NCBI GenBank assembly: GCA_027324805.1
Contig: DAHVRZ010000003.1
Coordinates: 1,294-65,293 of the forward strand
DNA length: 64,000 nt
Direction of reading: 5' to 3'
Source of the DNA: Candidatus Parcubacteria bacterium
GTDB lineage: Bacteria > Patescibacteriota > Minisyncoccia > UBA6257 > 2-01-FULL-56-20
The stretch's first letter is position 1, and each line of letters starts with the position of its first letter. Both the position numbers and the translations under genes were made by a program. Below the pieces are notes generated by a model. That model was not told the origin of the DNA. It searched no databases and saw only the letters and a program-made list of their open reading frames with translations. Below, piece after piece: positions 4,408-22,983 of the stretch.

Positions 4408-4418
4408 TAAACAGCCCT

Positions 4419-4438
4419 ATCCGCGCTCCGGCGCGGAT
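4419..4438 (+). terminator. Hairpin (ATCCGCGC-TCCG-GCGCGGAT) after the sigma-like gene
   Basis: Perfect 8-bp inverted repeat with a 4-nt loop, 12 nt after the stop codon. No clear T-run follows; the next bases form TGTTATAAT, an extended -10-like element. Confidence 0.35.
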
Positions 4439-4458
4439 ATCTGTTATAATTGCAGTAT

Positions 4459-5811
4459 ATGGATATAGTTTGGGGCATTCTGAGCGGTGCGGGAACCGTC
4501 CTTTATTACACCTGGTGGCTCTGGGTCTTTATCATTGCGGGACCGCTTTTTGTGGAGGTGTGGCTTTTTTGGAAACAGGAAACTTTCAAACATGATATCG
4601 ATTGGGTGCTCCTTGAACTTCGGATGCCGCGCGAGGTGCGCAAAAGTCCGATGGCAATGGAGCAGGTGCTCGCAGCATTGCATTCCCTTAGGAATGCGCC
4701 GGGCGACTTCCAGGAAAAATATTTGAATGGTGAGATAACGCGATGGTTCTCGCTCGAACTGGTAAGTCTTGGCGGTGAGGTTCACTTTTATATTCGTGCA
4801 CCGCGGGGACAAAAAGACCTCGTTGAGGCCGCATTTTTCTCATATTATTCCGACGTCGAGCTTGCGGAGGTGGATGATTATGTGAGCAATCTCCCGGAAA
4901 GTATGAATGAACTTTATGAAGGAGGATATGAGCTTTGGGGGACGGAGCTTGTCCTCGCCAAAAACGAGGCATATCCTATCAAAAGCTATCTTGACTTTGA
5001 AGCACCCGAGGAGGAAAAACAGTACGATCCCATTTCAATGTTTCTCGAGGTGCTCGGCAAGGCAAAGCGGGAGGAGTTCGTTGGCATCCAGTTCGAGATC
5101 GCGCCGGCAGGCGACGAATGGAAAACGCATGGCCAGCATGTGGTCGAGGAGCTTCGTTCGAAAAAAGAAGGCGGAGGACGCGGACCGGGCGCGAGTATGG
5201 GCATCGAATTCCCGCACATCCTTCCCACCTTTCCCGTCGAAAAGCACGACGGTAAAGAAGACAGTGCTATTTCGAAAATGTTTCTCCGAACTCCGGGCGA
5301 GACCGATGTATTGAAAGCGGTCGAAGAGAACCTTTCAAAGCCGGGATTCGAGACCGTAGTCCGTTTTGTCTACACCTCGCCCAAAGAGCTTTATGCCGAC
5401 ACGTTTGCCCGTCGCGGCGTCATCGGCGCTTTCAATCAATATGCTTCTAACGACCTCAATTCGTTCAAGCAGAACGAGTATATGAGTACAAGGGCGAAGG
5501 CATGGAAGTGGCCGCATATGTTTCCATCGCGTCGCGTGTATCTTCGTCGCGAGCGGATTCTGGAATACTATCGTCACCGCGAGATCCCACCGCACGTGGG
5601 CATCGGAAAGCATTTCCTCGGGAGGTTTATGAACGGCGAACATTCAGAGCACTTCATCATGACGACCCGGTCGCTTGCGACACTGTTCCACCCGCCGACC
5701 TATCTCGTGCTTACCGCGCCGCACGTCCGCCGCATCGAAAGCCGCAAGGCGGGTCCGCCGGCCGGTCTCCCGATCTATGGCGCCGAGGAAACTATCGAAA
5801 AATTCCGATGA
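4459..5811 (+). CDS. Hypothetical membrane-anchored protein (2 N-terminal TM helices plus ~400 aa soluble domain)
   Basis: Long ORF. ATG at 4459 (MDIVWGILSGAGTVLYYTWWLWVFIIAGPLFVEVWLFW) is preferred over the ORF-track TTG at 4450. Its stop overlaps the next start (ATGA at 5808-5811). Confidence 0.6.
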   Translation: MDIVWGILSGAGTVLYYTWWLWVFIIAGPLFVEVWLFWKQETFKHDIDWVLLELRMPREVRKSPMAMEQVLAALHSLRNAPGDFQEKYLNGEITRWFSLELVSLGGEVHFYIRAPRGQKDLVEAAFFSYYSDVELAEVDDYVSNLPESMNELYEGGYELWGTELVLAKNEAYPIKSYLDFEAPEEEKQYDPISMFLEVLGKAKREEFVGIQFEIAPAGDEWKTHGQHVVEELRSKKEGGGRGPGASMGIEFPHILPTFPVEKHDGKEDSAISKMFLRTPGETDVLKAVEENLSKPGFETVVRFVYTSPKELYADTFARRGVIGAFNQYASNDLNSFKQNEYMSTRAKAWKWPHMFPSRRVYLRRERILEYYRHREIPPHVGIGKHFLGRFMNGEHSEHFIMTTRSLATLFHPPTYLVLTAPHVRRIESRKAGPPAGLPIYGAEETIEKFR

Positions 5812-6341
5812 TACCCGCACCTCCTTCCTCATTTCCGACGACGTTCTGGGGCATCTACGATTTTGTCGGGGCGATGTTTATTATGGCCGACATCGTGCTC
5901 ATTATAGGACTCGCGTATTCAGTGGCGCGATCATGGCGATTCCGACCCGGTTTCCATGCCAGCGCGGCGCATGAACACAAAGGACCAAGCAAAGCGCCTC
6001 ACAAGCCGACGATGCACGATATCGTTATGCGTGAACGCTGGCAGTCGATCGTCCATAAATTCCACACCGGCACGCCTGAAGCGTCGCGTCTCGCAATCAT
6101 CGAGGCCGATTCGCTTGTGGATACTGCACTTAAGAACATGCGGATCGAAGGAGAGCATCTCGCCGACCGGCTTTCGAATCTTGAGGATGAGGATATTAAA
6201 TCCATGCAGAAGGTCTGGCGTGCACACCGCGTGCGCAATGACCTTGTGCACACGTCGGGATTCGCCATTGCGCCGCATGATGCGGAGCGGACCATGCAGG
6301 ATTACGAAGCGTTTCTGCGGGAAATAAACGTGATCGAATAA
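5808..6341 (+). CDS. Small single-pass membrane protein (178 aa) with a possible HEPN-like Rx4H motif
   Basis: Internal ATG at 5808 overlaps the upstream stop. The ORF-track extension to 5502 lies out of context inside the previous gene. TM helix FWGIYDFVGAMFIMADIVLIIGLAYSV. C-terminal region contains WRAHRVRNDLVHTSG. Confidence 0.55.
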   Translation: MIPAPPSSFPTTFWGIYDFVGAMFIMADIVLIIGLAYSVARSWRFRPGFHASAAHEHKGPSKAPHKPTMHDIVMRERWQSIVHKFHTGTPEASRLAIIEADSLVDTALKNMRIEGEHLADRLSNLEDEDIKSMQKVWRAHRVRNDLVHTSGFAIAPHDAERTMQDYEAFLREINVIE

Positions 6342-6345
6342 CGTC

Positions 6346-7827
6346 ATGCCGAAACCGGGAAAGATCCAGATCATCAAATATGCGCCGCCGCCGCCGGAGC
6401 TTCCGATATACGGACAGGTGGACCCTGCAGAGGCTTCGTTCATTGGCCGTACGAACTACGTTGCCGCGCTCGAGGAAAAGAAGTTTGTGTTTGGCATCAA
6501 ACGCGGGGATCGCAGGCGTCATCTTTATATTATCGGGAAGAGCGGGGTGGGCAAGTCGAAACTGCTCGAACTCCTGATCCGCCAGGACATCGGTTACGGC
6601 TACGGGCTTTGCCTCATGGACCCGCATGGCGACGTGATCGACGCGATCCTCGATTTTATTCCCGAAGACCGGATAAAGGACGTTGTGATCATCGATCCAA
6701 CCGATCTCGATCATCCGGCATCCTTCAATCCACTCCAGAACATCGATCCCAGTTTCAAGCATCAGCTTGCGCAAGGACTCATCGAGGTGATGGAAAAGCA
6801 GTTCGGGGCCAACTGGACCCCGCGCCTCGAGCACGTGTTTCGTTTCACCGTCCTCGCACTCCTTGATTATCCGCACGCGACGATGCGCGGCATGATTTCC
6901 ATGCTTACCGACCGAAATTACCGCCAGAAGGTCGTCGAATATATCGACGACGACATGGTGAAGCGCTTCTGGGCGATCGAATTCGCGGATTGGTCCGAGA
7001 AGTTCGATACCGATGCGATCATCCCTCTCGTGAACAAGCTCGGTCAGTTTTTGTCCGACCCGCTCCTACGTAATATCTTCGGGCAGAAGGAGAACAAGAT
7101 AAACCTCGAGGAGTTGATGAATCAAAAAAAGATCATTCTCATCAATCTCTCGAAGGGGCGTCTCGGCGAGGAGAACGCATCGTTTCTTGGTGCGATGTTC
7201 ATCACGAAGATCAAGCAGGCCGGCATGGCGCGCGCGGCGATCCCACAGAAGGATCGGCACGATTTCTATCTTTATGTGGACGAGTTCCATAATCTCGTGA
7301 CCGAAACGTTCGAGAACATTCTTTCCGAGGCGCGCAAATATGGTCTATGCCTTACGGTTGCGCACCAATATATGGGCCAGCTCATCCCGCGCGTTCAGAT
7401 GGCTGTGCTCGGCAACGTCGGCAGTATTATCGTATTCCGCGTCGGAGGCGAGGACGCCGTGCATCTTAAGCCGGAGATGGCCCCGATCTTCGACGTAAAG
7501 GATATGATCAACCTCGGCATGCAAGAGTTTTATATCAAGATGATGATCGATGGCGAAAGCTACGATCCCTTCTCGGCCGAGACGCTCAAGGTGCTCGAAC
7601 CGCCGCACCGTTCGTTCCGCAAGGAGATCATCGAGGAATCGCGGCGGAGGTATACCATTTCCGCCGATGCCGCAAAAAAACTCATTCAGGAAGAGGAGGC
7701 GGGTATCCTGCGGAGCGCCCAGGAAAAAAGCATTATCACGGGCGGCCGCGGGACCCACGGAAACCTTTCGGGCATGGGCTCTTCCGATAATAACGGCATT
7801 GACCAACCTCCCGAGCCGTTGATATGA
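6346..7827 (+). CDS. VirD4/TraG-like (type IV coupling protein-like) P-loop ATPase, HerA/FtsK superfamily, soluble
   Basis: Walker A IIGKSGVGKSK followed by the HerA/DUF87-type CLMDPHGD motif. Walker B LYVDEFHN. TraG-D_C-like C-terminal segment (AHQYMGQL...GNVGSIIVFRVGG). No TM helix. Starts 4 nt after the upstream gene. Confidence 0.8.
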   Translation: MPKPGKIQIIKYAPPPPELPIYGQVDPAEASFIGRTNYVAALEEKKFVFGIKRGDRRRHLYIIGKSGVGKSKLLELLIRQDIGYGYGLCLMDPHGDVIDAILDFIPEDRIKDVVIIDPTDLDHPASFNPLQNIDPSFKHQLAQGLIEVMEKQFGANWTPRLEHVFRFTVLALLDYPHATMRGMISMLTDRNYRQKVVEYIDDDMVKRFWAIEFADWSEKFDTDAIIPLVNKLGQFLSDPLLRNIFGQKENKINLEELMNQKKIILINLSKGRLGEENASFLGAMFITKIKQAGMARAAIPQKDRHDFYLYVDEFHNLVTETFENILSEARKYGLCLTVAHQYMGQLIPRVQMAVLGNVGSIIVFRVGGEDAVHLKPEMAPIFDVKDMINLGMQEFYIKMMIDGESYDPFSAETLKVLEPPHRSFRKEIIEESRRRYTISADAAKKLIQEEEAGILRSAQEKSIITGGRGTHGNLSGMGSSDNNGIDQPPEPLI

Positions 7828-7858: not shown

Positions 7859-8050
7859 ATGTTCGTTCCCTGGTGGATCATCATTCTTGTGGGACTTCTA
7901 CTTGTCTATTTGGTGCTTATGAATGCGCATCTTCACAAGCGCGTGCGGAAACTCGAATCCGTCGTCCGTCGTCTCGAAGGTGTGAGCGAGGAGGAGGTCA
8001 AGAAGCAGATCAAGGAGCGGATGACGCAATACGATGCCGGAGGGGATTAA
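7859..8050 (+). CDS. Small membrane protein (63 aa; TM helix plus charged coiled-coil tail)
   Basis: MFVPWWIIILVGLLLVYLVLM followed by a K/E/R-rich segment. Its 3' end overlaps the start of paralog 1. Confidence 0.45.
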   Translation: MFVPWWIIILVGLLLVYLVLMNAHLHKRVRKLESVVRRLEGVSEEEVKKQIKERMTQYDAGGD

Positions 8051-11565: not shown

Positions 11566-13353
11566 ATGATAGAAAATATGGAAACAAAGGTTTGTGCGAA
11601 TTGCGGAACGAAGTTCGAAGTCTCGTCCCAGGCGTCGGCGTTCCAGGCGAAGATCGGGGTGCCCTCGCCAACGTTCTGTCGCGACTGCCGCGTGGCGCGC
11701 CGCATGGCATTCCGCAATGAACGAGTGCTTTATAAAAAGAAGTGCGACGCGCCGGGGCACGATGAGATGATTGTTTCCGTCTTTGCGACGGAGAGCAAGC
11801 AACGCACCTACGACCACGCGGCATGGTGGGGTGACGCATGGGATCCTCTCGATTATGGTCGCGATATTGATTTCACCAAGCCGTTTCTCCAGCAGATCAG
11901 GGAGCTTTGGCCCGAGGTGCCTGACGTTTCGGTTCTCAATATCAACCCGGTAAACAGCGATTACTGCAACATCACCGAAGGTAACAAGAACTGCTATCTC
12001 GTTTACGGCGGCGACTTCAATGAGAACACGTCCTATTCGACCTATATCTTTCGCAGTAAGGAGTCGCTCGACACGTATTGGATACAGAACTCAGAATTCA
12101 ATTATGAGACGATTGATTGCACCGAAGGTTCGAAGCTCCTCTGGAGCCGCTACTGCGAAGGCTGTTATAACAGTGCATTCTTGTTCAATTGTCGCCACTG
12201 CCACGACTGCTTTGGCTGCGCGAATCTCGTGAATAAATCCTACTGCTTTTTCAATGAGCAGCTTACCAAGGAGGAATATGAAAAAAGGATCAAGGAATTC
12301 GATCTCTCAAGCCATGAGGGTGTGGAGCGAGCAAGGGCCCGATTCGCGGAACATTCCCTCAAATATCCCCGGCGTTTTGCGCGGATGATCAAGGCGGTGA
12401 ATTCGACCGGCGACAATATTGAGAATTGCCGCAATTGCGAGCGCTGTTTCGATGTTTTCCAGGGTGCCGAAAATTGCTCGGACGTTTTCCTTGTCTATTC
12501 GAACGTGAAGGACAGCATTGATGCGGACCACTGCGGACAGGCAAGCGAGCTCGCATACGAATCCTCGGCGGTGTATCCGGGCAGTCGCGTGCTTTTCTCG
12601 CGTTTCATCTTTAATGCGAATAATATCCAGTATTCCTACAACTGCCACAACTCCAACGATCTTTTCGGATGCATCGGTATCCGCAACAAGCAGTACTGCA
12701 TCCTCAACAGGCAATATTCAAAAGAAGAGTACGAGGGACTGGTGCCGAAGATCATCCGGCATATGAAGGAAATGCCGTATATTGACAGTCGGGGCATAAA
12801 ATACGGCTACGGAGAATTCTTTCCTGTGGAATTTTCACCGTTCGCATACAATGAGACGATCGCGCAGGAAATGTACCCGATCTCCCAAGGGCAGGCGGAA
12901 CAGTATGGCCTCCCGTGGCGCGCCCCGGAAGAAAAAGGATATGCGCCGACGAAGCACGCAAATGAACTTCCTGATCGCATTGCGGATGTGGACGATTCGA
13001 TCCTTAAGGAGATCATCGAGTGCTCGCACGGAGGAAATTGCAACGATCAGTGCACGAGGGCGTTCCGGATCATACCCTCAGAGCTTGCGTTCTACCGCCA
13101 TCTTGGCATTCCGCTCCCGCGCCTTTGTCCGATGTGCCGACACTTCGAGCGTGTCCGCCGGCGCAATCCGTATCGCCTCTGGCACCGGAAGTGCCAGTGT
13201 GCCGGAGCGGCGACCGAGAGAGGGGATTATAAGAATCTTGGCATGCATGCGCACGGCCAAGCGCACTGCGCGAATGAATTCGAAACGAGCTACGATCCGA
13301 AGCGGCCGGAAGCCGTATATTGCGAGGAGTGCTACCAGCAGGAGGTTATGTGA
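11566..13353 (+). CDS. Cysteine-rich multi-zinc-ribbon protein, paralog 3 of 5
   Basis: MIENMETKVCANCGTKFEV...TFCRDCRVARR...WWGDAWDP. The second N-terminal ribbon is degenerate: its Cys residues are lost. C-terminus FRIIPSELAFYRHLGIPLPRLCPMCRH...LWHRKCQC...CANEFETSYDPKRPEAVYCEECY. Confidence 0.8.
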   Translation: MIENMETKVCANCGTKFEVSSQASAFQAKIGVPSPTFCRDCRVARRMAFRNERVLYKKKCDAPGHDEMIVSVFATESKQRTYDHAAWWGDAWDPLDYGRDIDFTKPFLQQIRELWPEVPDVSVLNINPVNSDYCNITEGNKNCYLVYGGDFNENTSYSTYIFRSKESLDTYWIQNSEFNYETIDCTEGSKLLWSRYCEGCYNSAFLFNCRHCHDCFGCANLVNKSYCFFNEQLTKEEYEKRIKEFDLSSHEGVERARARFAEHSLKYPRRFARMIKAVNSTGDNIENCRNCERCFDVFQGAENCSDVFLVYSNVKDSIDADHCGQASELAYESSAVYPGSRVLFSRFIFNANNIQYSYNCHNSNDLFGCIGIRNKQYCILNRQYSKEEYEGLVPKIIRHMKEMPYIDSRGIKYGYGEFFPVEFSPFAYNETIAQEMYPISQGQAEQYGLPWRAPEEKGYAPTKHANELPDRIADVDDSILKEIIECSHGGNCNDQCTRAFRIIPSELAFYRHLGIPLPRLCPMCRHFERVRRRNPYRLWHRKCQCAGAATERGDYKNLGMHAHGQAHCANEFETSYDPKRPEAVYCEECYQQEVM

Positions 13354-13390: not shown

Positions 13391-14014
13391 TCAGGATAGA
13401 GCGATCATGGGACGCTGTTTCCGCTTCAGTATCCAAATGAAGACAAGAACAGTGGAGCACATCATCATGGCGCGGATGGGATAGAGCGTCGCAAGGAGAT
13501 CGTGGCCCGAAGCCGCAACATAGATGCCAAGGATCGCGGCGGCCATTTCCGCGGTCCAAATGGACGGCGGCTCCGGCGTGCCCGGCCGCTTCCATGTCCA
13601 CAGTCGGCGATAGGTCGGATAATAGGCGACCGTCATGACGACCTGGAACCCTCCGACGCCCACGAGCGGCATATGCACCTCCAGCCAGGCAATGAAGGTT
13701 GCGGCGGAGATGGCAAGGCATATCCATTCGTTCGGATGGAATCGGATGCCTTCCTTTCGGTTTTTCACAATGAGCGTCCCGAGAATGAAGGTCACTGCGA
13801 GACAGTCCGTCGTATTCGCGACGTTGCGCACAAGATCGTGCGACGGCGCCGAAAGATAGGTGACGAGGCTCATGATGACGCCTATTTCAAAGATGATCCA
13901 GGTTGCGATCGGCGGATGCGCTTCTCCGCGGGCGATCTTCAGACAATAGGCCCCTCCCATGAAAAGGATAAGGGAGGCGGACGCCATCGCCGCAAAGGAT
14001 GGGAGCAGTCCCAT
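13391..14014 (-). CDS. Polytopic integral membrane protein (about 6 TM helices), hypothetical; opposite strand inside the array
   Basis: 207-aa ORF with repeated hydrophobic helices. Convergent with paralog 3 and divergent from paralog 4. Confidence 0.55.
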   Translation of the reverse strand: MGLLPSFAAMASASLILFMGGAYCLKIARGEAHPPIATWIIFEIGVIMSLVTYLSAPSHDLVRNVANTTDCLAVTFILGTLIVKNRKEGIRFHPNEWICLAISAATFIAWLEVHMPLVGVGGFQVVMTVAYYPTYRRLWTWKRPGTPEPPSIWTAEMAAAILGIYVAASGHDLLATLYPIRAMMMCSTVLVFIWILKRKQRPMIALS

Positions 14015-14102: not shown

Positions 14103-15836
14103 ATGGATCAGACGACCGCAACCTGCACGAGCTGTAAATCGCCGTTCGTGATCGAATCCGATGACCTCATTTTCTATAAAAAATTCGGTGTCCCTGCGCC
14201 GAAGATGTGCTTTTTTTGCCGTTCGCGTCTCCGCCTCGCATTCAAGAATGAACGATCGTATTACCATCGAAGGTGCGACAAATGCGGTAAAGAAACCATC
14301 TCGATGTACAGCACGAATAAACCATATGCCGTATGGTGCTACGATTGCTGGTTCTCCGATGATTGGGATGCCGCGGAATATGCGCGGGACTATGATCCTT
14401 CAAAACCGTTTCTTGAACAATTCGCCGAACTTTGGCGCTCGATGCCCAAGGTAGCACTCATCGGCGTTCGCAACGTGAACTCCGAGTATGTGAATATTTC
14501 GGCGGACAATAAGGAATGTTATATGATCGTGGAATCTTCGAACAATGAGAATTGCGCCCATTGCTATTGGATCCAACAATGCCATGACTGCGTTGACACT
14601 TCGTTTGCGCACCGCACGGAACTTTCCTATGAGAGCGACGATTGCTATAGCTGCTATGGTTTACGCTACAGCAAAGGATGCAGTGACAGCCGGGACAGTT
14701 TTTTTCTCCTTGATTGTCGGGGATGTTCGGATTGCATCGGTTGCATGAATCTTCGCAATAGAAAATATTGCATATTCAACGAGCAACTCACAAAGGAGGA
14801 ATATGAGAAGGCGAAGGACGGTATGCGGCTCGATACGGCGAGCGGTGTCGCGGCGGTCGGGAAGAATTTTTCAGACTTTGTGAAAACCCAGCCACTTCGT
14901 TATGCGGAGGTCTACAACGCTCCCGGATCGAGCGGCGATTATATCAACAATGCGAAAAATTGTCGTTATTGTTTTCATTGCTATGAATCCGAGGATTCTA
15001 AATACGGCGTCCATGTATGGGAAGGGGCGAAGGACTGCATGGATGTCGATACTGCCGGCCGCGGCGCCGAACACGTATACAATGCCATCAATTCCGGCAT
15101 CAATGTTTCGCATTACGTAGGTACGGCCGTCTGCTGGAGCTGTTCGTTCATGGAATATTCCTATTATTGCTTCAATTCAAACCATTGCTTCGGTTCCGTT
15201 GGACTCAGGAAAAAAGATTATCACATTCTTAATAAGCCATATGAGAAGGAGGAATTTGAAGTGTTGAGAGGAAAAATAGTCGCCGAGATGCGGGGAAAAG
15301 GGGAATATGGAGAATTTTTCCCGCCGGCCATAAGCACATTCGGTTACAACGAAAGTGCTGCGCAGGAGCAGTTTCCCCTTACGAAGGAAGGGGCCATCGC
15401 GCTCGGATTCTCATGGGAAGATACGCCGCGCGGAACATTTGGCAAAGAGACCATAGCATGGGAGAGCATCCCCGACTCGATACGGGACCTCGGAGCCTTG
15501 GATCCGGCAAAGGAAGTGTTTTTGTGCACCAAGTGTTCGAAGAACTATCGGATTATCCCGGCCGAACTGCAATTCTATAAGCGGCTCGAGATACCTTTAC
15601 CGCGGCTTTGCCCCGATTGCAGGCATGAACGCCGCTTTGCCGCGCGCGGACCGAACCAGCTCTTTGAGCGCTCATGTAGCTGTTCGGGGTATGGATTGGC
15701 CGGTAGCACCTATGCGAACGCTTCGCGCCATTTCCATGGCAATGGCGAATGTCCCAACAAATTTATGACAAATTATACTCCAGATTATGATGGCATGGTG
15801 TACTGTGAGCAATGCTATAACGCTGAAATTACATGA
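14103..15836 (+). CDS. Cysteine-rich multi-zinc-ribbon protein, paralog 4 of 5
   Basis: Start at ATG 14103 (MDQTTATCTSCKSPFVIESDDLIFYKKFGVPAPKMCFFCRSR...; ATG 14070 is an alternative). The ORF-track start at 13959 overlaps the minus-strand membrane gene. Family motifs conserved through the C-terminal ...GMVYCEQCYNAEIT. Confidence 0.8.
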   Translation: MDQTTATCTSCKSPFVIESDDLIFYKKFGVPAPKMCFFCRSRLRLAFKNERSYYHRRCDKCGKETISMYSTNKPYAVWCYDCWFSDDWDAAEYARDYDPSKPFLEQFAELWRSMPKVALIGVRNVNSEYVNISADNKECYMIVESSNNENCAHCYWIQQCHDCVDTSFAHRTELSYESDDCYSCYGLRYSKGCSDSRDSFFLLDCRGCSDCIGCMNLRNRKYCIFNEQLTKEEYEKAKDGMRLDTASGVAAVGKNFSDFVKTQPLRYAEVYNAPGSSGDYINNAKNCRYCFHCYESEDSKYGVHVWEGAKDCMDVDTAGRGAEHVYNAINSGINVSHYVGTAVCWSCSFMEYSYYCFNSNHCFGSVGLRKKDYHILNKPYEKEEFEVLRGKIVAEMRGKGEYGEFFPPAISTFGYNESAAQEQFPLTKEGAIALGFSWEDTPRGTFGKETIAWESIPDSIRDLGALDPAKEVFLCTKCSKNYRIIPAELQFYKRLEIPLPRLCPDCRHERRFAARGPNQLFERSCSCSGYGLAGSTYANASRHFHGNGECPNKFMTNYTPDYDGMVYCEQCYNAEIT

Positions 15837-16105
15837 TTGAAACCGACATAGCGAATGAAATAAATACGATTAAAGAACGTAATCGTCGCGTGGAAGCGGA
15901 TAAGGCTTGGGAGAGGAGTATGCTTCGGATAGGCTCTATCACCGTTATCACATATATCATTGCGGCGTTCGTTATGTATACTATCGGGGTCAATGGATAT
16001 CTCCTGAATGCACTCATCCCGTCCATTGGATATTTTCTCTCCACTCAATCGCTTCCTGCAATAAAACAATGGTGGATCCGCCGTTGCTATAAAAAAGAGA
16101 AATGA
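15833..16105 (+). CDS. Small membrane protein (90 aa), translationally coupled on both sides
   Basis: ATGA overlap with the paralog 4 stop (15833-15836) and with the paralog 5 start (16102-16105). N-terminal charged helix followed by 2 hydrophobic segments. Confidence 0.5.
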   Translation: MIETDIANEINTIKERNRRVEADKAWERSMLRIGSITVITYIIAAFVMYTIGVNGYLLNALIPSIGYFLSTQSLPAIKQWWIRRCYKKEK

Positions 16106-17895
16106 ACGCCGCCGAAACAAAGATCTGCTTAAACTGCGATGCGGTCTTCACTATTGAGCTGGAGGATTTTGCGTTCTACGGTAAATTGAACGTTCCACCG
16201 CCAACGCGATGCCCCCGCTGCCGGCTTCGGCGACGGCTTTCCTTCATGAACGAGCGGTCGCTTTACCGAAGCATATGCGCACATTGCGGGAAGAAGATCC
16301 TCTCGGTTTTTTCGCCAGGCTCCCGCCGCCTCGTATACTGTCCTGCTTGCTGGTGGTCTGATGTCTGGGATCCGATGGACTACGGCACCCAATACGATTT
16401 TTCGCGCCCATTCTTCGCCCAATACAGGGAGCTTCTCGAAAGGATCCCGCATCCTTCGCGGGAAACGGTCGAAAGCACTCTCGTGAACAGTGATTATTGC
16501 AATATCACGTCGTACCTCAAAAATTCTTACCTCGTCTTCAATTCGGACTATGATGAGGATTGTGCGTACAGCTCTTACTTGGAACGAAGTTCCCGTTGTG
16601 TTGATATTACGATGGGAGATCTTTCGGAACTTTGCTACGAAAGCCATAATATCTACAAATGCAATCGCGTTATTTTCTCCGACAACTGCAATGAGTGTGT
16701 CGACGTCGCATTCTCGAAGGATTGCATTGGATGCGAACATTGCTTCGGATGCGTGAACCTGCGAAACAAGCAGTATTATATTTTCAACCGGCCATTCACC
16801 AAAGAGACGTATTTCCAGGAGATTGAAAAATACGACATTGGATCGTATAGGGTCCGGCAGGAACTGACCGAACGACTCAATGCGCTCAGCCGCTCCCTGC
16901 CCAAACGATATGCGCATGGCCTTAAAAATCTGAATGTGAAGGGGGATTTCATTTTCAATTCCAAAAATGTCACGGAAAGCTATGAGGTGACCGACGCGAA
17001 GGACTGCAAATACTGTCATTTCCTTTTCATCGCCTCCACAAACGATGCTTATGATTTTACGATGTGGGGCGGGGGTGCCGAGCGCGTATATGAATGCATG
17101 GGTACCGGAGGAGGGCAGAGCGATATCCGTTTCTGTTACGAATGCTGGTCCTCCGATACGCGCAATCTCGAATACTGTATGTATTCTCAAGGAAGCGACC
17201 TTTTCGGATGCATGGGGGTGCGAAAGAAACAGTATTGCATTCTCAATAAACAATATTCAAAAGAGGAATACGAGGCGCTCCACAGCCGGATACTTGAGCA
17301 GATGAGATCAATGCCTTACATTGACGCAAAGGGAAATACGTATTCGTACGGCGAATTTTTTCCATCGGAAATATCGCCATTCAATTATCGCGAGACGATG
17401 GCGCAGATGTACTTTCCGCTTACGCAGGCGGAAGTTGTCGCGCAGGGATTCAATGGCAAGCATTTTGACGAGGCGAAGCATTACGATATAAGCATTGACG
17501 CCCCCGGATTGCCGGACAACATAAAAGACGTTCGGGATTCTATAACCGATGAGATTATAGGATGCGTCCATCGGGGGACATGCGGGGAGCAGTGCACGAC
17601 GGCGTTCAGGATCACGCCGACCGAACTTGAGTTCTATCGGCATATGGGCTTGCCTCTGCCGAGGTTATGTCCCAATTGCCGTCATTATGCACGGTTGTCC
17701 GACGGTCCCGGTTTGGATTTTTTCGAACGGCAATGCATGTGTCTTGGTCAAAGCTCCAAAGAGGGGCATTATCGGAACCTCTCGGTGCACGCTCACGGCG
17801 TTCATCCATGCACCAACACCTTTGAAACCGCGTATGCTCTCGATCGTCGCGAGACCGTCTATTGCGAACAGTGCTATCAGGCGGAAACGGTATGA
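16102..17895 (+). CDS. Cysteine-rich multi-zinc-ribbon protein, paralog 5 of 5
   Basis: MNAAETKICLNCDAVFTIELEDFAFYGKLNVPPPTRCPRCRLRRR...LVYCPACWWSDVWDP...FRITPTELEFYRHMGLPLPRLCPNCRH...CTNTFETAY..RRETVYCEQCY. Confidence 0.8.
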   Translation: MNAAETKICLNCDAVFTIELEDFAFYGKLNVPPPTRCPRCRLRRRLSFMNERSLYRSICAHCGKKILSVFSPGSRRLVYCPACWWSDVWDPMDYGTQYDFSRPFFAQYRELLERIPHPSRETVESTLVNSDYCNITSYLKNSYLVFNSDYDEDCAYSSYLERSSRCVDITMGDLSELCYESHNIYKCNRVIFSDNCNECVDVAFSKDCIGCEHCFGCVNLRNKQYYIFNRPFTKETYFQEIEKYDIGSYRVRQELTERLNALSRSLPKRYAHGLKNLNVKGDFIFNSKNVTESYEVTDAKDCKYCHFLFIASTNDAYDFTMWGGGAERVYECMGTGGGQSDIRFCYECWSSDTRNLEYCMYSQGSDLFGCMGVRKKQYCILNKQYSKEEYEALHSRILEQMRSMPYIDAKGNTYSYGEFFPSEISPFNYRETMAQMYFPLTQAEVVAQGFNGKHFDEAKHYDISIDAPGLPDNIKDVRDSITDEIIGCVHRGTCGEQCTTAFRITPTELEFYRHMGLPLPRLCPNCRHYARLSDGPGLDFFERQCMCLGQSSKEGHYRNLSVHAHGVHPCTNTFETAYALDRRETVYCEQCYQAETV

Positions 17896-17942: not shown

Positions 17943-20105
17943 ATGGCTCCTTTGTCACCTCAATCGACCGAACTCGAGAACAACGTCATTTATTTTGCGA
18001 GGACGAATTTCAGGAATTCGAGCCATCTTTTCGGTATCAAGCGCGCCGACCGGAGGCAACATACCTATGTGGTAGGGAAGACGGGTACGGGCAAAAGCTC
18101 GATGCTCAATAATATGATCGTGCAGGACGTTGCGAATGGCGAAGGTGTTTGTGTGGTTGACCCCCACGGCGAGCTTGTCGAAGGCATCCTCGACAAAATC
18201 CCCGAGGAGCGCATGAAGGATGTGGTCTATTTCAATCCGGCCGATCCCGATTTTCACGTCGGTTTCAATATCCTTGAGCTTCCCGACCCGAAATATAAGC
18301 ATCTTGTCGCCTCGGGCCTTATGGCCATCTTTACGAAAATATGGGCGGGTGTGTGGTCCGCCAGGATGGAATACATACTTAATAATTGCATTTTAGCGCT
18401 CCTCGATACGCCGGGCTCGACGCTTCTCGGCATTCCGCGGCTCCTGAGCGACAAAACCTACCGGCAGAAGATCATCGGGAATGTAAAAGATCCCGTGGTG
18501 AAGGCGTTTTGGATAAACGAGTTCGAGAGCTGGCAGGACCGGTTCCGCAATGAGGCGATCGCGCCGATCCAAAACAAAGTGGGACAGTTCCTTTCGACGT
18601 CGCTCGTACGCAACATCGTCGGACAGTCGAAGAGCACGATCGATGTGTTCGATATCATGAACGAAGGAAAGATATTCCTTGTGAACGTCTCGAAGGGGCG
18701 CATCGGCGAGGACAACTCCGCGCTTCTCGGCGCAATGCTCATCACGAAGATCCAGCTCGCCGCCATGGAACGCGTGCGTATCCCCGAAGAAGACCGCGTG
18801 GATTTTTATCTTTACGTCGACGAGTTCCAGAACTTTGCGACCGACTCCTTTGCGGGGATCTTGTCGGAAGCGCGCAAATACCGCCTTAACCTCACGCTCG
18901 CGCACCAGTATATCGGACAGCTTGTGACCGATACCTCGACGCGCGTACGCGATGCTATTTTCGGCAACGTGGGGACGATGATCGTATTCCGCGTCGGGGC
19001 TACGGATGCGGAATTCCTCGAAAACGAATTTTCCCCGGAGTTTACAATCGAGGACATTGTAAACCTGCCAAACTACCATATCTATATCAAACTCATGGTG
19101 GACGGGGTGACCGCAAGACCATTCTCGGCAATGACATTGCCGACATTCAAGGTAAAGTCCTCCGAGGTTATGCAGGAAGATATCATTAAGATGTCCCAGA
19201 AGTATTATGCCCGGCCGCGCGAGGCGATCGAGGCCGAGATCAATCGTTGGAGCGGCATTATGGACGCCGCCGGCTCTCCCGTCGAAGCCGCTCCAAGCGG
19301 AGGGGGGAGCGGCGGATCCGCGGAGCGGCCGGTGACGACGCCGGATGGCTTGGTGCAGAAGACCGCGCCGATTGCAACCGCTTCCGGCATCCGCTATCAG
19401 GCTGTTTGTTCGTCGTGCGGCAACCTTACGACGCTTCCGTTCGAACCGACACCCGGCCGCCCCGTCTATTGTCGGGATTGCATGAAGAAAATCGAATCAG
19501 GGGAGATAAAACCCGTCCGCGCAACATGGAGTCCTTCAAAAGGATCTTCGGTTCGCGCAAAAGAACGATCCACCGAGGCGCTGAGTCGTCTCGGCATCGA
19601 ATTCGCCGCGGAAGAGCCATCGCATTCGTCCGACGGCTCTTCAATGCCTCCCCGACAACCTTCAATGCCGCTGCCCCGCCGTCCACGGAGACCGATCGGT
19701 CCGACACCCGCCCCTTCATCATTACCGGATTCGATCCCGTCGAAGAGTCCTTCGAAGCCCGTTGCGCCACGATCCTTGGCAACACAACCGTCTTCGGGAG
19801 GATCGGAGGCGCAACAAGAGACCATTTCGCTTGTCGAACTTACGAAGCCGCAAGAGAAATCGGTTCAAAAATCAAAACATCCTCCCCATGCCGAAGTGAA
19901 TATCGCATCCCTGCGCGATGCCATCCGCGCATCGCTTGCCGCGGATCTCGGCGCCGCGTCGTCCGGTGATGCATCCGATGACGGTTTTGGAGTGACACCT
20001 CCGCTGTCGGAAAACGATGTCGCCCGGCCAAAGGAATCTCCGGCGGCGAATGTAAATAACGACGATGAAGACTACGAAGAAGACCATTCGCGCCGGAACC
20101 GTTAA
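17943..20105 (+). CDS. VirD4/TraG-like P-loop ATPase (paralog of 6346-7827) with C-terminal zinc ribbon and long disordered P/S/acidic tail
   Basis: Walker A VVGKTGTGKSS followed by CVVDPHGE. Walker B LYVDEFQN. AHQYIGQL...GNVGTMIVFRVGA. C-terminal CSSCGNLTTLPFEPTPGRPVYCRDCMKK (CxxC-x18-CxxC), then ~210 aa low-complexity tail ending NNDDEDYEEDHSRRNR. Confidence 0.8.
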   Translation: MAPLSPQSTELENNVIYFARTNFRNSSHLFGIKRADRRQHTYVVGKTGTGKSSMLNNMIVQDVANGEGVCVVDPHGELVEGILDKIPEERMKDVVYFNPADPDFHVGFNILELPDPKYKHLVASGLMAIFTKIWAGVWSARMEYILNNCILALLDTPGSTLLGIPRLLSDKTYRQKIIGNVKDPVVKAFWINEFESWQDRFRNEAIAPIQNKVGQFLSTSLVRNIVGQSKSTIDVFDIMNEGKIFLVNVSKGRIGEDNSALLGAMLITKIQLAAMERVRIPEEDRVDFYLYVDEFQNFATDSFAGILSEARKYRLNLTLAHQYIGQLVTDTSTRVRDAIFGNVGTMIVFRVGATDAEFLENEFSPEFTIEDIVNLPNYHIYIKLMVDGVTARPFSAMTLPTFKVKSSEVMQEDIIKMSQKYYARPREAIEAEINRWSGIMDAAGSPVEAAPSGGGSGGSAERPVTTPDGLVQKTAPIATASGIRYQAVCSSCGNLTTLPFEPTPGRPVYCRDCMKKIESGEIKPVRATWSPSKGSSVRAKERSTEALSRLGIEFAAEEPSHSSDGSSMPPRQPSMPLPRRPRRPIGPTPAPSSLPDSIPSKSPSKPVAPRSLATQPSSGGSEAQQETISLVELTKPQEKSVQKSKHPPHAEVNIASLRDAIRASLAADLGAASSGDASDDGFGVTPPLSENDVARPKESPAANVNNDDEDYEEDHSRRNR

Positions 20106-20124
20106 AAGGAAAGCGTCCCACGGG

Positions 20125-20811
20125 GTGCAGTTCCATATTCTTACGGTTTTCCCGGAGATGTTCGGCTCGTACCTTGGCGAGTCGCTCTTTAAGCGAGCAC
20201 AAAGAGAAGGTCTCGTTTCGGTGAATCTGATGAATATCAGGGATTTTACCGATGATCGCCATAATAAAGTGGACGACCGGCCTTTCGGGGGCGGACCCGG
20301 CATGGTGCTCAAGGTTCAGCCCATTTGGGCGGCCCACGAGGCAATCCTCAAAAACATAGCACGAAAGGGATCAAAAAAATCCAAAGGGAAGACGAAAACA
20401 CGGACCGTTCTATTTTCCACGCGCGGAAAGAAACTCGATGCCGTGCACGCACGACGGCTGGCAATGTACGACCATCTTATCCTCGTGTGCGGACGCTATG
20501 AAGGCGTCGATGAGCGCGTGGCGGACCACATCGCCGATGAGGAGGTATCGATAGGGGATTACGTTCTTTCCGGCGGTGAGTTGCCGGCGCTTGTGCTTAT
20601 GGAAACAGTAAGTCGACATATTCCTGGCTTTCTAGGAAAAGAAGAGTCACTCGAGGAGATCAATGGCTCGTTTCCGACCTTTACACGGCCTGAAGTTTTC
20701 GTTCCTGGAACAAAGAAAGGTAAGGCCTGGAAGGTCCCGGACGTCCTTCTGTCGGGAGACCATAAAAAGATAGCTGAATGGCGTACATCGCACGGCGATA
20801 AAAAACTTTAG
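20125..20811 (+). CDS. trmD: tRNA (guanine37-N1)-methyltransferase TrmD
   Basis: VQFHILTVFPEMF..., GGGPGMVLK, CGRYEGVDERV, LSGGELPALVLMETV are TrmD SPOUT motifs. GTG start at 20125 is preceded by AAAGGAAAG; ATG at 20065 is an alternative that would overlap the ATPase. Confidence 0.85.
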   Translation: MQFHILTVFPEMFGSYLGESLFKRAQREGLVSVNLMNIRDFTDDRHNKVDDRPFGGGPGMVLKVQPIWAAHEAILKNIARKGSKKSKGKTKTRTVLFSTRGKKLDAVHARRLAMYDHLILVCGRYEGVDERVADHIADEEVSIGDYVLSGGELPALVLMETVSRHIPGFLGKEESLEEINGSFPTFTRPEVFVPGTKKGKAWKVPDVLLSGDHKKIAEWRTSHGDKKL

Positions 20812-20845: not shown

Positions 20846-22063
20846 ATGCGGACCTTCGTGCGCTCGGCGGATATTTTCCATGCGTGCATGGCGTCGTTCC
20901 TTCTGGGGGCGCTTGTTGTCGTGCACGGTTGGAACCGAGCGATGCCATTTTTCCTTTTGACAGCCGTGGTGATTGTCGGCATAGCAAGCTTGCGGATATC
21001 CGTGCGGACGGTGATGGTCGCCTGCGGCATATTGGCAACATTCCTTTTCTCAGTGATATATTGCCATGCCCGTCTTACGTTGCCATATTCAAACACATCA
21101 TCCTATGTTTCCGGATTATCGCTTACGGAACGTTTGGCGCTTTCCCGCGGTTTTGCGTTGTTGTCATACCGAAATGCGGCGCTTCTCGGGGCATTCATCG
21201 GCGGATCGACGCGGAGGCTCCCTCCTGATATGAGGGGTGGGATGGCGAATTCGGGAACTTCCTATCTTGTGGGTATGTATGGATACAAATTACATCTGCT
21301 TGTTGAAACGATTGCCGCGGTCTGCGCGTTTGTCGTTCCTAAAATGGTCGGTAAAATTGCGGGACTTGCCATGGCCGCATGTTTTGTTATCACTGCAGGC
21401 GCGCCGATTTCCGCGGTCCGTGCGGGGATAATGATCATATTCGTATCGCTTGCCGAGCTTGCCGGAAGACGCGCTGATCGCATTGCCGCACTCACCCTTT
21501 CGGCGTTCGTTATGGTCGCATGGGATCCCGCAGTATGTGGAAGCGTGGGCTTTCTTCTTTCATTCCTTAGCCTTCTTGGAATATATACGCTCGCACCGGC
21601 GCTCAAAGAATGCGCTATTATTTATGCCACGCGTATCCGGTCTGCGATGGTTCCCGTCGTTGCGGATTCACGCATTGGACGCATGGTTGGTGCGATATTC
21701 GGATTCCATGCGACCGCTTCTGCTGCAGTGAATCTCGCGATCCTCCCCGTGATCGCGCGGCTGGATGGCTCCTTTCCTTTGATATCGTTCGCATCGAATG
21801 TTTTTGCCGCGTTGCCATTCGGGGTCATGCTCGGATTGGGTGCCGGGCTCGCCGCCGCAGGGGTTACCATTCCTTCTGTTGCTATTCTTTTCATATTTCC
21901 GCTCAATGTCATTCTTGGATACGAGACGATGGTTATTCGTGTGACCGCGGCTGTGCCCTTCGATATTTCCGGCATAGCATTCCCGCCGCCCGTAATGGCG
22001 ATATATTATGCGGGACTTATGGTATTTGCGTGGCGATTCAGGAGGATAAAACGGCGTGCATAG
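20846..22063 (+). CDS. comEC: ComEC/Rec2-like competence-domain integral membrane protein (lacks MBL domain)
   Basis: Polytopic membrane protein with a ComEC-like core region (MANSGTSYLVGMYGYKLHLL...). Followed by a separate MBL-fold gene. Confidence 0.6.
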   Translation: MRTFVRSADIFHACMASFLLGALVVVHGWNRAMPFFLLTAVVIVGIASLRISVRTVMVACGILATFLFSVIYCHARLTLPYSNTSSYVSGLSLTERLALSRGFALLSYRNAALLGAFIGGSTRRLPPDMRGGMANSGTSYLVGMYGYKLHLLVETIAAVCAFVVPKMVGKIAGLAMAACFVITAGAPISAVRAGIMIIFVSLAELAGRRADRIAALTLSAFVMVAWDPAVCGSVGFLLSFLSLLGIYTLAPALKECAIIYATRIRSAMVPVVADSRIGRMVGAIFGFHATASAAVNLAILPVIARLDGSFPLISFASNVFAALPFGVMLGLGAGLAAAGVTIPSVAILFIFPLNVILGYETMVIRVTAAVPFDISGIAFPPPVMAIYYAGLMVFAWRFRRIKRRA

Positions 22064-22080
22064 AAGGGATACGGACGACC

Positions 22081-22983
22081 ATGAAACAACCTATTCATCA
22101 AAGATTATTATTATTTTTGTTTATTGCGGCTTTTGTTATGGGGGATATCCTATCCTGGTATCGGATTCTTTTTGTGCCGCTGGTCGAAAATGCAGCGATA
22201 TATCCGATCATGCATTTCTTCGACGTGGGACAGGGAGATGCCGAACTTGTCTCATTTGGGGACGGCACGAATATTCTCACCGACGCCGGCCCAAGCGGTC
22301 CCGTCATTCTTGGCGCACTTGATTCGGTCCTTGGTTCGCGGGACCGTTCGATAGATATCATCATCATTTCGCAACCATCCGCCTCCCACTTCGGAGGCCT
22401 TCAGGATATAGTGGACCATTATCGCGTTGGTGCGATCGTCTATAACGGGAGGGATGCACCGCCCGGTGTTTCGGCGTGGCCGACGCTCCTTGAAAAGATA
22501 TCGGCCAAAATGATCCCGCTTATCACGCTGGGGGAAGGGGATCGTCTGCGCATCGGTACCTTGGGAGAGGTGGATATTCTTTCTCCGGGCCGTGAGCGTG
22601 CCGAAAGCCAGGAGCTCGGCGATACGGGCATCGTGCAGCTCGTTACAACAGACAAATTTCGGGCGCTTTTCACTGCCGATATAGGATCCGGCGTCGAAAA
22701 TGCCCTCGTGGCGCGGTATGGGATGTCATTACATGCCGATATCCTTAAAATCTCGCACAACGGATCAAAAAACTCCTCGGGAGCGGCATTTCTTTCGGCA
22801 GTATCGCCGCACATGGCGATCATAGAGGTTGGCGCAAAGAATTTCTACCATCAGCCGTCTGCCGAGACGCTTATTCGCATCGTTTCATCGACATCCGCAA
22901 GGGTCTTCCGGACGGATGAGGATGGAACCGTGACGGTATTCCGGGCTTCGGACGGTATACTTTCCGCGGTTGCCGCGCGCTGA
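22081..22983 (+). CDS. Metallo-beta-lactamase-fold protein with N-terminal TM helix (ComEC C-terminal domain-like)
   Basis: ATG at 22081 (MKQPIHQRLLLFLFIAAFVMGDILSW...). FFDVGQGDAELVSF and ...SHFGG match the ComEC MBL-domain signature (DVGQGDA). The ORF-track start at 21610 is an overlapping upstream extension. Confidence 0.7.
   Translation: MKQPIHQRLLLFLFIAAFVMGDILSWYRILFVPLVENAAIYPIMHFFDVGQGDAELVSFGDGTNILTDAGPSGPVILGALDSVLGSRDRSIDIIIISQPSASHFGGLQDIVDHYRVGAIVYNGRDAPPGVSAWPTLLEKISAKMIPLITLGEGDRLRIGTLGEVDILSPGRERAESQELGDTGIVQLVTTDKFRALFTADIGSGVENALVARYGMSLHADILKISHNGSKNSSGAAFLSAVSPHMAIIEVGAKNFYHQPSAETLIRIVSSTSARVFRTDEDGTVTVFRASDGILSAVAAR

Follow-up and report, generated by a model that had tools for sequence, protein, structure and literature searches.

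A CxxC-x17-CxxC zinc finger tethered to one of two coupling-protein-like ATPases in a Patescibacteria operon

The window analysed here, i.e. the whole stretch of 64,000 nucleotides from a Candidatus Parcubacteria contig, encodes two coupling-protein-like ATPases, the second of which (ATPase-2) carries a CxxC-x17-CxxC zinc finger. By its profile scores the finger is a canonical member of TIGR04272/PF23477, a family already catalogued. The best explanation as a whole, to which we give roughly one chance in two, is that an orphan coupling-protein-like motor recruits its substrates through the finger as a tethered arm. Taken alone the finding is the re-discovery of an annotated domain and ordinary; its value is that of an entry point. 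The finger marks which of the two orphan ATPases bears a recruitment-type appendage, helps to define a conserved Patescibacteria operon and offers a concrete handle for asking what orphan Patescibacteria motors move. Feature coordinates are compiled in Table 1.

Table 1. Features of the ATPase-2 locus, in window coordinates.
Feature	Position (nt)	Strand	Details
mem453	4450..5811	+	single-pass membrane protein; N-terminal TM segment aa 17-35
tm177	5808..6341	+	small membrane protein with a single TM segment; position between mem453 and ATPase-1 conserved
ATPase-1	6346..7827	+	493 aa; T4CP-like paralogue of ATPase-2 without finger; PF10412 and DUF87 matches
Paralog P1	8034..9842	+	602 aa; PAR.hmm 816 bits
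P1 fingers	A 8067-8186, B 8211-8315, A' 9537-9629, B' 9750-9830	+	
Paralog P2	9853..11559	+	568 aa from ATG 9853 (ORF opens 9751)
P2 fingers	A 9868-9984, B 10009-10110, A' 11311-11415, B' 11458-11544	+	
Paralog P3	11566..13353	+	595 aa
P3 fingers	A 11584-11703, B 11728-11835, A' 13048-13143, B' 13264-13338	+	B Cys-less
Paralog P4	14106..15836	+	576 aa from ATG 14106 (public call starts ~14070, 588 aa)
P4 fingers	A 14118-14225, B 14262-14363, A' 15525-15635, B' 15750-15818	+	
Paralog P5	16102..17895	+	597 aa
P5 fingers	A 16117-16236, B 16261-16362, A' 17590-17685, B' 17809-17880	+	
ATPase-2	17943..20105	+	720 aa; T4CP-like (TrwB/VirD4/HerA-fold) P-loop ATPase with C-terminal extension
ATPase-2 catalytic region	17943..19262	+	aa 1-440; pLDDT mostly 80-96
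ATPase-2 linker	19263..19391	+	aa 441-483 (~45 residues), disordered, G/S/P-rich; AF2 and conservation
ATPase-2 zinc finger	19395..19490	+	aa 485-516; CxxC-x17-CxxC, predicted treble clef; family profiles and AF2
ATPase-2 tail	19491..20102	+	aa 517-720, mostly disordered; conservation over 120 homologues, AF2

ATPase-2 and its zinc finger

The ORF and the public gene call of ATPase-2 are identical. PF10412 TrwB_AAD_bind matches it at 48.4 bits (vs 20.5), and TrwB (1e9s) is the top PDB fold match of its AF2 model (TM 0.63). A Walker A motif (GKTGTGKS), a Walker B-like motif (YLYVDEFQNF) and an all-alpha insert lie within the catalytic region. ATPase-2 and ATPase-1 share 46% identity across 432 aa, and neither possesses a hydrophobic 19-mer or a TM segment. 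The linker 3' of the catalytic region (pLDDT < 50 at aa 443-470 in AF2) varies in length and is poorly conserved among homologues.

Nucleotides 19401-19490 translate to AVCSSCGNLTTLPFEPTPGRPVYCRDCMKK, aa 487-516 of ATPase-2. The initial annotation had described this segment as a C-terminal zinc ribbon with CxxC-x18-CxxC spacing. The zinc finger itself is real, with 56.1 bits for NCBIfam TIGR04272 (cxxc_cxxc_Mbark; cut-off 36) and 54.1 bits for Pfam PF23477 (zf_Tbcl_2, described as a 'probable treble clef zinc finger'; GA 27). Its cysteines C489, C492, C510 and C513 (nt 19407-19481, codons starting at 19407, 19416, 19470 and 19479) are arranged as C489-x2-C492-x17-C510-x2-C513, hence x17 by residue count from C492 to C510, and the finger is not C-terminal, being followed by 207 further residues. 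The AF2 model (pLDDT 90-95; strands 482-488 and 495-498; helix 511-519) places the second CxxC at the N-terminus of the helix and predicts a treble clef, not a classical two-hairpin zinc ribbon. The finger is present in all 120 best ATPase-2 homologues, 119 of them with x17 spacing, and its four cysteines are invariant in 99 of 99 aligned homologues. Many of these proteins are already named "CxxC-x17-CxxC domain-containing protein" at NCBI and JGI. The charge of the finger is mildly basic (6 K+R vs 4 D+E, aa 484-525).

Zinc ligation by the four cysteines is putative for ATPase-2; small Methanosarcina mazei proteins of the same family bind zinc according to ICP-MS (PMC12704099). Apart from zinc binding, neither a solved structure nor a functional study was found for any PF23477 member, and literature searches under the names PF23477, TIGR04272, IPR026363 and zf_Tbcl_2 returned no paper. 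The tail profile gives no score higher than 14.4 bits among 177,635 distinct PDB sequences; the finger has no solved relative by sequence.

Zinc modules regulate other ring ATPases, e.g. the zinc-binding domain of ClpX. By analogy the ATPase-2 finger might be a regulatory or structural module of the ATPase (autoinhibition, ring stabilisation, redox or zinc sensing), unrelated to substrates and neighbours. The invariant cysteines and the very strong conservation of the finger sequence are consistent with such a role, which is nevertheless improbable: the disordered linker of variable length parts the finger from the catalytic domain, finger copy number can vary (the ATPase fragment P0255 bears two fingers) and ATPase-1 works without a finger. 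ATPase-1 has 2 Cys and no zinc-finger family match, in agreement with the initial annotation.

The region 3' of the finger retains several short motifs, namely KIxxGExxP directly adjoining the finger, LxxLGIEF (aa 544-553), SLxxL (aa 629-633) and ExxIxxLRxAIxxSL (aa 651-665). L547, G551, I552, E553, L630, L633, L657 and L665 are near-invariant in the homologue alignment, and AF2 models helices at 538-548 and 654-672. An amphipathic helix common to this tail (aa 648-672) and the small proteins of the finger family was rejected: compared with the LNxKLDxILxLL motif, which 45 out of 150 small proteins with the finger possess, the top score was 0.4 bits, the level of shuffled sequences.

Distribution of the finger family

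A profile of the ATPase tail matches 6,879 protein clusters at E <= 1e-3, for the most part small R/G-rich proteins from archaea and Patescibacteria. The top scores belong to proteins of 87-364 aa, rich in R and G and bearing 2-5 tandem copies, that come from Thermoplasmatota archaea and from Buchananbacteria. ATPase-2 shares with the family the exact spacing, the VPFxPxxGRPVYCxxC signature and the predicted treble clef, but has a single copy, which a tether joins to a motor domain of 440 aa. The initial annotation took the domain shared by motor and neighbours as an argument that they function together. Because the module is promiscuous, this evidence is weak, and the finger occurs too widely to be, on its own, proof that ATPase-2 and the paralogs work together.

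Fingers of the beta-helix paralogs

The paralogs encoded between the two ATPases are cysteine-rich beta-helix proteins of ~600 aa, both ends of which are capped by a zf_Tbcl-like finger and then a divergent PF23477-type finger. The AF2 model of P5 reaches pLDDT 92.9 and pTM 0.92. The family comprises at least 8,000 sequence clusters, has no Pfam family and no PDB fold match; huge and unannotated, it is built from the same two types of predicted treble-clef finger. The first ribbon has a CxxC-x24-CxxCR layout with the second knuckle at a helix N-terminus (AF2), as in PF13451 zf_Tbcl; of 60 N-terminal modules scanned in isolation, 58 match this family at E <= 1, the best at 5.2e-6; the window copies score 18.2 bits, under the gathering score of 24.

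Four of the five window paralogs contain a second N-terminal CxxC-x17-CxxC, at aa 65-89 of P1, 92-116 of P2 (counted from ORF 9751), 106-130 of P4 and 59-83 of P5, which ends in VYCxxC or, for the fourth paralog, in VWCxxC. These four thus have the spacing of the ATPase-2 finger, while P3 has lost the cysteines. Among paralog homologues this finger is intact in 83 of 107 and Cys-less in the remaining 24 (22%). Further, P2 B' is a clean CAEC-x17-CKSC.

Whether the likeness exceeds generic CxxC...CxxC spacing depends on the level of comparison. In Smith-Waterman alignments the ATPase-2 tail is clearly similar to P5 (z 6.4, 0 of 300 Cys-fixed shuffles as high), whose finger B is the closest in the window, but P1 and P4 are marginal (z ~2.5, 5-6 of 300 shuffles as high) and the top alignments with P2 and P3 fall elsewhere than the second N-terminal ribbon; the pairwise similarity that had been proposed is clearly significant for one paralog and marginal or misplaced for the other four. 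Full-length scans likewise favour generic spacing, leaving most paralogs below the Pfam gathering score: P5 obtains 25.5 bits with PF23477 (< 27) and 21.9 bits with NCBIfam TIGR04272 (below 36), and P1, P2 and P4 have no reported match to either.

At profile level, in contrast, spacing alone is scarcely credible as an explanation, and the similarity noted earlier holds. With an HMM built from 119 ATPase tails, the 81 real paralog fingers average 18.1 bits and reach at most 29.4, against 1.9 +/- 3.2 bits for Cys-fixed shuffles; 86% of the real fingers lie above the 99th percentile of the null. Two hhalign comparisons of the ATPase tail with the paralogs' second finger give probabilities of 97.4% (E 1.4e-11) and, in the other case, 96.2% (E 2.7e-9), the alignments staying in register for 29-30 columns; the first ribbon reaches 8.5% only, and the many internal CxxC pairs of the paralogs do not match. 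As isolated N-terminal modules, P5 rises to 30.4 bits with PF23477 (> 27) and 42 of 60 paralogs match it at E <= 1. A paralog-finger HMM run over ~130 kb in six frames finds the ATPase tail as its only match outside the paralogs, and reversed and shuffled paralog controls as well as a PDB-wide control likewise speak against generic spacing. By these profile comparisons the second N-terminal finger of the paralogs is a divergent homologue of the ATPase-2 finger, and the C-terminal copy is homologous too, more weakly. The first ribbon is, by the same sequence comparisons, unrelated to it. Recent domain exchange between the ATPase and a neighbouring paralog was rejected: the ATPase-2 finger obtains 54-56 bits with the family models but 17-25 bits with the HMM of the paralog finger, and so lies far nearer to the consensus of the family.

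Operon structure and synteny

A recurrent Patescibacteria operon consists of a sigma-r4/HARE-HTH protein, mem453, tm177, ATPase-1 and then the finger-bearing ATPase-2. It is conserved in L071, L078, L055, L024, L032, L082, L085, L091 and L093, and a literature search found nothing describing it. At 13 loci with both ATPases, exactly one of the pair bears the finger. Zero to nine beta-helix paralogs, varying in number by locus, lie between or beside the two motors. mem453, tm177 and tm63 each have a single TM segment. mem453 is syntenic in 16 GTDB loci plus L085, L091 and L093, and matches phrog_5156 at positions 78-298, both ATPases matching the same phrog at positions 394-810, from which it follows that a fused form exists elsewhere. 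mem453 is probably the in-trans membrane anchor of the motor.

A T4CP-like ATPase is found in 16 of 31 paralog-centred loci (other species, full 10-kb flanks), against a chance expectation of ~4% (about two such genes per ~1-Mb genome). The juxtaposition of motor and paralogs is thus not due to chance, as had been argued initially, and gene order is better evidence for their link than the shared finger. In the opposite direction, of the 24 metagenome loci centred on the tail and no shorter than 10 kb, 15 hold paralogs, and paralog arrays also stand beside the finger-bearing ATPase in L001-L003. The link is not obligatory because L085, a close relative the tail of which is 95% identical to that of the window ATPase-2, keeps operon and finger without paralogs (sigma/HARE-HTH, mem453, tm177, ATPase-1, tm63, ATPase-2 with finger, trmD).

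The initial annotation envisaged heterotypic docking between ribbons, in which the ATPase-2 finger would dock on its homologue in the array proteins, thereby recruiting them to the motor. Such docking is decidedly unlikely. It would agree with the profile-level homology of the fingers, with the arrays beside finger-bearing ATPases and with their copy number of 0-9, a variation typical of cargo or effector families. However, not only L085 but also L091, L093, L112, L118, L123 and L125 have the finger-bearing ATPase without paralogs at the locus, and the partner finger is Cys-less in 24 of 107 paralog homologues and in P3. In the paralog model, furthermore, the second N-terminal finger is predicted to be part of a rigid, high-confidence body (pTM 0.92, pLDDT 94-97) and not a free module, and the ATPase-2 finger is far more like free-standing family members than like the paralog finger. 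A common nucleic-acid ligand of motor and neighbours, also put forward at the outset, is possible, though putative.

Relation to known motors

Type IV coupling proteins (T4CPs) have defining features listed in PMC7431656. ATPase-2 possesses their fold features, a Walker A/B nucleotide-binding domain plus an all-alpha domain, and shares the P-loop NBD and all-alpha fold with TrwB of R388, VirD4, TraD and DotL. Its Pfam matches are PF10412, PF02534 and PF12696, and the structural PDB matches of its model are led by TrwB, followed by HerA, Cag-beta and DotL. Like TraD and DotL, ATPase-2 has a C-terminal extension beyond the motor. In those two proteins the extension recruits substrates or adaptors, that of TraD binding TraM. 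Unlike T4CPs, ATPase-2 lacks an N-terminal TMD, the membrane part being encoded separately and possibly provided in trans by mem453; two paralogous ATPases per operon and the zinc-finger tail are further differences. All curated NCBIfam T4CP models remain far below cut-off (TIGR03743 best, 53.7 vs 366 bits; NF045973, 43.5 vs 250). The 64-kb window contains just two ATPases of the FtsK/HerA/VirB4 class, and VirB4, relaxase or other T4SS genes are absent from it and from the gene tables of L001, L003 and L084.

The hexameric DNA translocases HerA and FtsK provide the second-best structural matches (4d2i, 8xau, 9x1m) and a DUF87 match, but in sequence ATPase-2 is closer to TrwB-type models. In contrast to HerA, including defence-associated HerA, ATPase-2 has none of the known HerA partners, such as NurA and Sir2, nearby. 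A known defence system was rejected as well: PADLOC gives only weak HerA and mad8 matches for the ATPases, and neither the paralogs nor the membrane proteins are matched. Across 2,918 genomes of Patescibacteria 5,713 VirD4-like T4CPs have been counted, about two genes per genome and only 148 of them near virB4, for which exaptation "cannot be ruled out" (PMC12102498).

Proposed role of the finger

In the preferred reading, the finger and the motifs following it would form a flexible arm recruiting substrates or adaptors, with six arms per presumed hexamer, the hexamer being assumed from the fold. The arm may work like the C-terminal extensions of TraD and DotL, an analogy with T4CP tails in general that involves no sequence similarity, and mem453 would supply the membrane anchor in trans. 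Nucleic acid, or a partner bound to nucleic acid, is the preferred ligand of the finger because T4CP, HerA and FtsK motors act on DNA, and because elsewhere the finger occurs most often as tandem copies within small basic proteins rich in R and G. The array proteins would be frequent but dispensable neighbours, likelier clients or co-factors of the motors than finger-docked partners.

The arm could also be a pure protein adaptor with no nucleic-acid role, finger, LGIEF and LRxAIxxSL binding ATPase-1, mem453 or secretion substrates. T4CP tails are protein-docking sites, and the DotL tail binds adaptors. Short linear motifs conserved within a disordered tail, a finger that is not strongly basic and the very name of PF12696 ('TraM recognition site of TraD and TraG') suit this alternative, which we hold to be a tentative possibility of some substance; against it, the finger elsewhere occurs mainly in R/G-rich proteins resembling nucleic-acid binders.

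The recruitment-arm reading may be extended, although doubtfully, to a Patescibacteria-wide undescribed membrane machine, composed of a split coupling-protein-like motor, in which mem453 and tm177 join ATPase-1, and of another motor that selects substrates by its tethered PF23477 finger, and handling DNA/RNA or the zinc-finger-capped beta-helix proteins. If so, the shared finger would be a recognition handle common to motor and clients, and the orphan T4CP genes, some two in each Patescibacteria genome and left unexplained in the literature, would gain a function.

Just downstream of ATPase-2 lie split ComEC genes (20846-22983). A linkage with ComEC and DNA uptake was rejected: conserved synteny does not support it, because ComEC adjacency is limited to 4 of ~80 loci, all related by shared local synteny, and is lineage-local.

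Position, family and fold of the ATPase-2 finger

The finger of the TrwB/VirD4-like ATPase-2 (translation AVCSSCGNLTTLPFEPTPGRPVYCRDCMKK) has its motif cysteines at C489, C492, C510 and C513, i.e. CxxC-x17-CxxC. The CxxC pair reported in the initial annotation stands, with a spacer of 17 instead of 18 residues. The finger had also been called C-terminal; it lies inside a C-terminal extension, with 207 residues beyond the motif. ATPase-1, the paralogous motor, possesses two cysteines and no such motif, as had been recognised.

With 56.1 bits against NCBIfam TIGR04272 ('CxxC-x17-CxxC domain', cut-off 36) and 54.1 bits against Pfam PF23477 (zf_Tbcl_2, 'probable treble clef zinc finger', gathering score 27), the finger is almost certainly a textbook member of this family. 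PF23477 is present in all 120 best ATPase-2 homologues (identity 59-78%; Jorgensen-, Pace-, Brenner-, Liptonbacteria and Minisyncoccia), the x17 spacing is kept in 119 of them, and the four cysteines are invariant in a 99-sequence alignment. Many homologues are already labelled 'CxxC-x17-CxxC domain-containing protein' by NCBI or JGI; finger and fusion to ATPase-2 are annotated in public databases, and the core observation is not new. A sequence search of the PDB returned no solved structure of the PF23477 family (top match 14.4 bits, E 0.23). ICP-MS has demonstrated that two small CxxC-x17-CxxC proteins of Methanosarcina mazei bind zinc (PMC12704099).

In the AlphaFold2 model, built with a 99-sequence alignment, the catalytic domain (aa 1-440) is confident and followed by a disordered linker (aa 443-470, pLDDT < 50). 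The finger is predicted at pLDDT 90-95, with strands at 482-488 and 495-498 and a helix at 511-519. With the second CxxC placed at the N-terminus of this helix, the modelled fold corresponds to a treble clef and not to a classical two-hairpin zinc ribbon. The remaining tail is disordered, yet retains the conserved short motifs KIxxGExxP, LxxLGIEF, SLxxL and ExxIxxLRxAIxxSL. A 364 aa fragment from another metagenome (P0255) combines an ATPase-2-type C-terminus with two fingers separated by a P-rich spacer; the copy number of the finger on the motor tail is therefore variable.

Finger match between ATPase-2 and the array proteins

The five array proteins (P1-P5) have an N-terminal pair of treble-clef fingers, one of zf_Tbcl type (CxxC-x24-CxxCR) and, 18 residues later, an x17 finger, followed by a central Cys-rich beta-helix and the same finger pair repeated at the C-terminus. 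Clustered at 90% identity, their family numbers at least 8,000 clusters, every one of them 'hypothetical'; it has no Pfam entry, and no PDB fold matches it significantly. A motif resembling CxxCxGCxxLRNKxYCIxNKxYxKEEY, a possible metal-binding site, occurs twice in each paralog.

P1, P2, P4 and P5 carry the second N-terminal CxxC-x17-CxxC, which closes with VYCxxC or, in P4, with VWCxxC; in P3 the cysteines of this finger are gone. Pairwise sequence support for the proposed resemblance to the ATPase-2 finger is thin: compared with Cys-fixed shuffles, P5 alone is distinct (z 6.4, 0/300), P1 and P4 are borderline, and the best alignments of P2 and P3 fall elsewhere. At profile level the match is clear. 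An HMM built from 119 ATPase tails gives 81 paralog fingers a mean score of 18.1 bits (Cys-keeping shuffles 1.9 +/- 3.2), 86% of them above the 99th percentile of the null, and the reverse test, a paralog-finger HMM on the window ATPase-2 tail, gives 24.6 bits (null 3.5 +/- 3.4). Hhalign aligns both families in register (97.4%, E 1.4e-11; 96.2%, E 2.7e-9 with the tool's own alignments). Within the paralogs, matches of the tail HMM are confined to the second N-terminal finger and its C-terminal copy; neither the first ribbon nor any of the numerous internal CxxC pairs is hit. When the window and three other loci are translated in all six frames, the ATPase tail is the sole match of the paralog-finger HMM beyond the paralogs themselves. 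Isolated N-terminal modules of 60 paralogs match PF23477 in 42 cases and PF13451 (zf_Tbcl) at the first ribbon in 58, and that of P5 exceeds the PF23477 gathering score (30.4 bits). Together, profile, hhalign and isolated-module tests indicate a likeness beyond generic CxxC spacing, and the resemblance originally proposed holds.

Distribution of the finger

A ribbon-only profile against 1.84 billion representatives retrieves 6,879 clusters at E <= 1e-3, of which 1,064 reach <= 1e-10. Judged by these searches, the PF23477 finger is a specific yet promiscuous module. The best 150 matches (P0241-P0390) range from 87 to 364 aa in length and almost always contain 2-5 finger copies; R/G-rich composition was seen in those inspected, PF23477 in ten of ten tested. 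Named sources are one Thermoplasmatota archaeon and Buchananbacteria. Small ORFs of this type make up about half of 80 metagenome loci found with the tail profile. These small proteins appear to form an abundant, unstudied class of putative nucleic-acid binders among archaea and Patescibacteria. Near the C-terminus, 45 of the 150 carry a short amphipathic motif, LNxKLDxILxLL.

The shared domain had been taken to argue that motor and neighbours function together. It is weak evidence for this, because the module is promiscuous, the ATPase-2 copy resembles the family consensus far more than it does the paralog finger, the metal ligands of the paralog finger are lost in 24 of 107 homologues as well as in P3, and in the paralog AlphaFold2 model (pLDDT 92.9, pTM 0.92) the finger belongs to a rigid body. 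Rather than docking finger to finger, the paralogs more likely serve the motors as clients or co-factors.

The motor, its operon and a proposed role

The catalytic part of ATPase-2 is structurally most similar to TrwB (1e9s, TM 0.63), then HerA, Cag-beta and DotL, and is 46% identical to ATPase-1. Unlike type IV coupling proteins it possesses no TMD, and it scores far under the cut-offs of curated TraD/VirD4 models; no T4SS or relaxase genes are seen nearby in the window or the gene tables of compared loci. This picture agrees with a survey in which only 148 of 5,713 VirD4-like genes from 2,918 Patescibacteria genomes lie near virB4, and which does not exclude exaptation (PMC12102498).

Coordinates of the ATPase operon and neighbouring features
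Feature	Position	Strand	Remarks
Operon parts	3370-7827 and 17943-20811; 1-7144 in L085
mem453	4450-5811		single-pass membrane protein; matched by phrog_5156
ATPase-1	6346-7827		finger-less; matched by phrog_5156
tm63	7859-8050	+	63-aa ORF, one TM segment, after ATPase-1; gene in public record
P1-P5	8034-17895		structure model from P5, 16102-17895
Multi-pass membrane protein	13391-14014	-	207 aa; interrupts array between P3 and P4
90-aa ORF	15833-16105	+	one TM segment; between P4 and P5; gene in public record
ATPase-2	17943-20105	+	ORF, 720 aa
ATPase-2 finger	19401-19490		aa 487-516
ComEC	20846-22983	+	split in two: Competence domain (405 aa) and Lactamase_B (281 aa); immediately downstream of trmD/ATPase operon

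The operon order is sigma70-r4/HARE-HTH protein, mem453 (single-pass), tm177 (small TM), ATPase-1, tm63, 0-9 paralogs, finger-bearing ATPase-2 and trmD. The first three genes keep their synteny with ATPase-1 across many loci, and two further loci (L001, L003) share ATPase-1, 5-6 paralogs and the finger-bearing ATPase-2 in the same order within unrelated outer flanks. A T4CP-like ATPase occurs in 16 of 31 paralog-centred loci (other species, full 10-kb flanks), with either ATPase first; the finger sits on exactly one ATPase in all 13 loci with both. Among 24 tail-centred loci spanning 10 kb or more, 9 lack paralogs. The close relative L085, whose tail shares 95% identity with that of the window ATPase-2, keeps the operon complete from its sigma-like gene through trmD; tm63 alone lies between the two ATPases, and paralogs are absent. 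The array is thus an optional insert between two motors, and the paralogs are dispensable neighbours.

Each ATPase-2 subunit carries one tethered finger, a treble clef in the AlphaFold2 model, conserved with its flanking motifs; the operon, likewise conserved, also encodes membrane partners and a second motor lacking the finger. By analogy with the C-terminal extensions of TraD and DotL, finger and tail might act as a flexible recruitment arm (probability roughly 0.5). Its ligand could be nucleic acid or a nucleic-acid-bound partner; a nucleic-acid ligand for the finger is only a tentative suggestion. New but incremental are the assignment of the array-protein fingers, present as a pair at either end, to divergent PF23477 and zf_Tbcl modules, the restriction of the finger to one of two motors, and a conserved operon with an optional array. 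The uncharacterised operon is a more interesting object than the finger itself.

The phage profile phrog_5156 (824 positions, function unknown) matches mem453 with positions 78-298 and the ATPases with 394-810; some viral proteins therefore combine the two, which here are seemingly split into separate genes, and this suggests that mem453 provides the membrane part missing from both ATPases. The 207-aa membrane protein has no Pfam family; homologues adjoin the finger-bearing ATPase in two other loci (L096, L113), and one more occurs in L043. Tm63 is conserved in L001 and L085. Adjacency of ComEC to the trmD/ATPase operon recurs only in 4 related loci.
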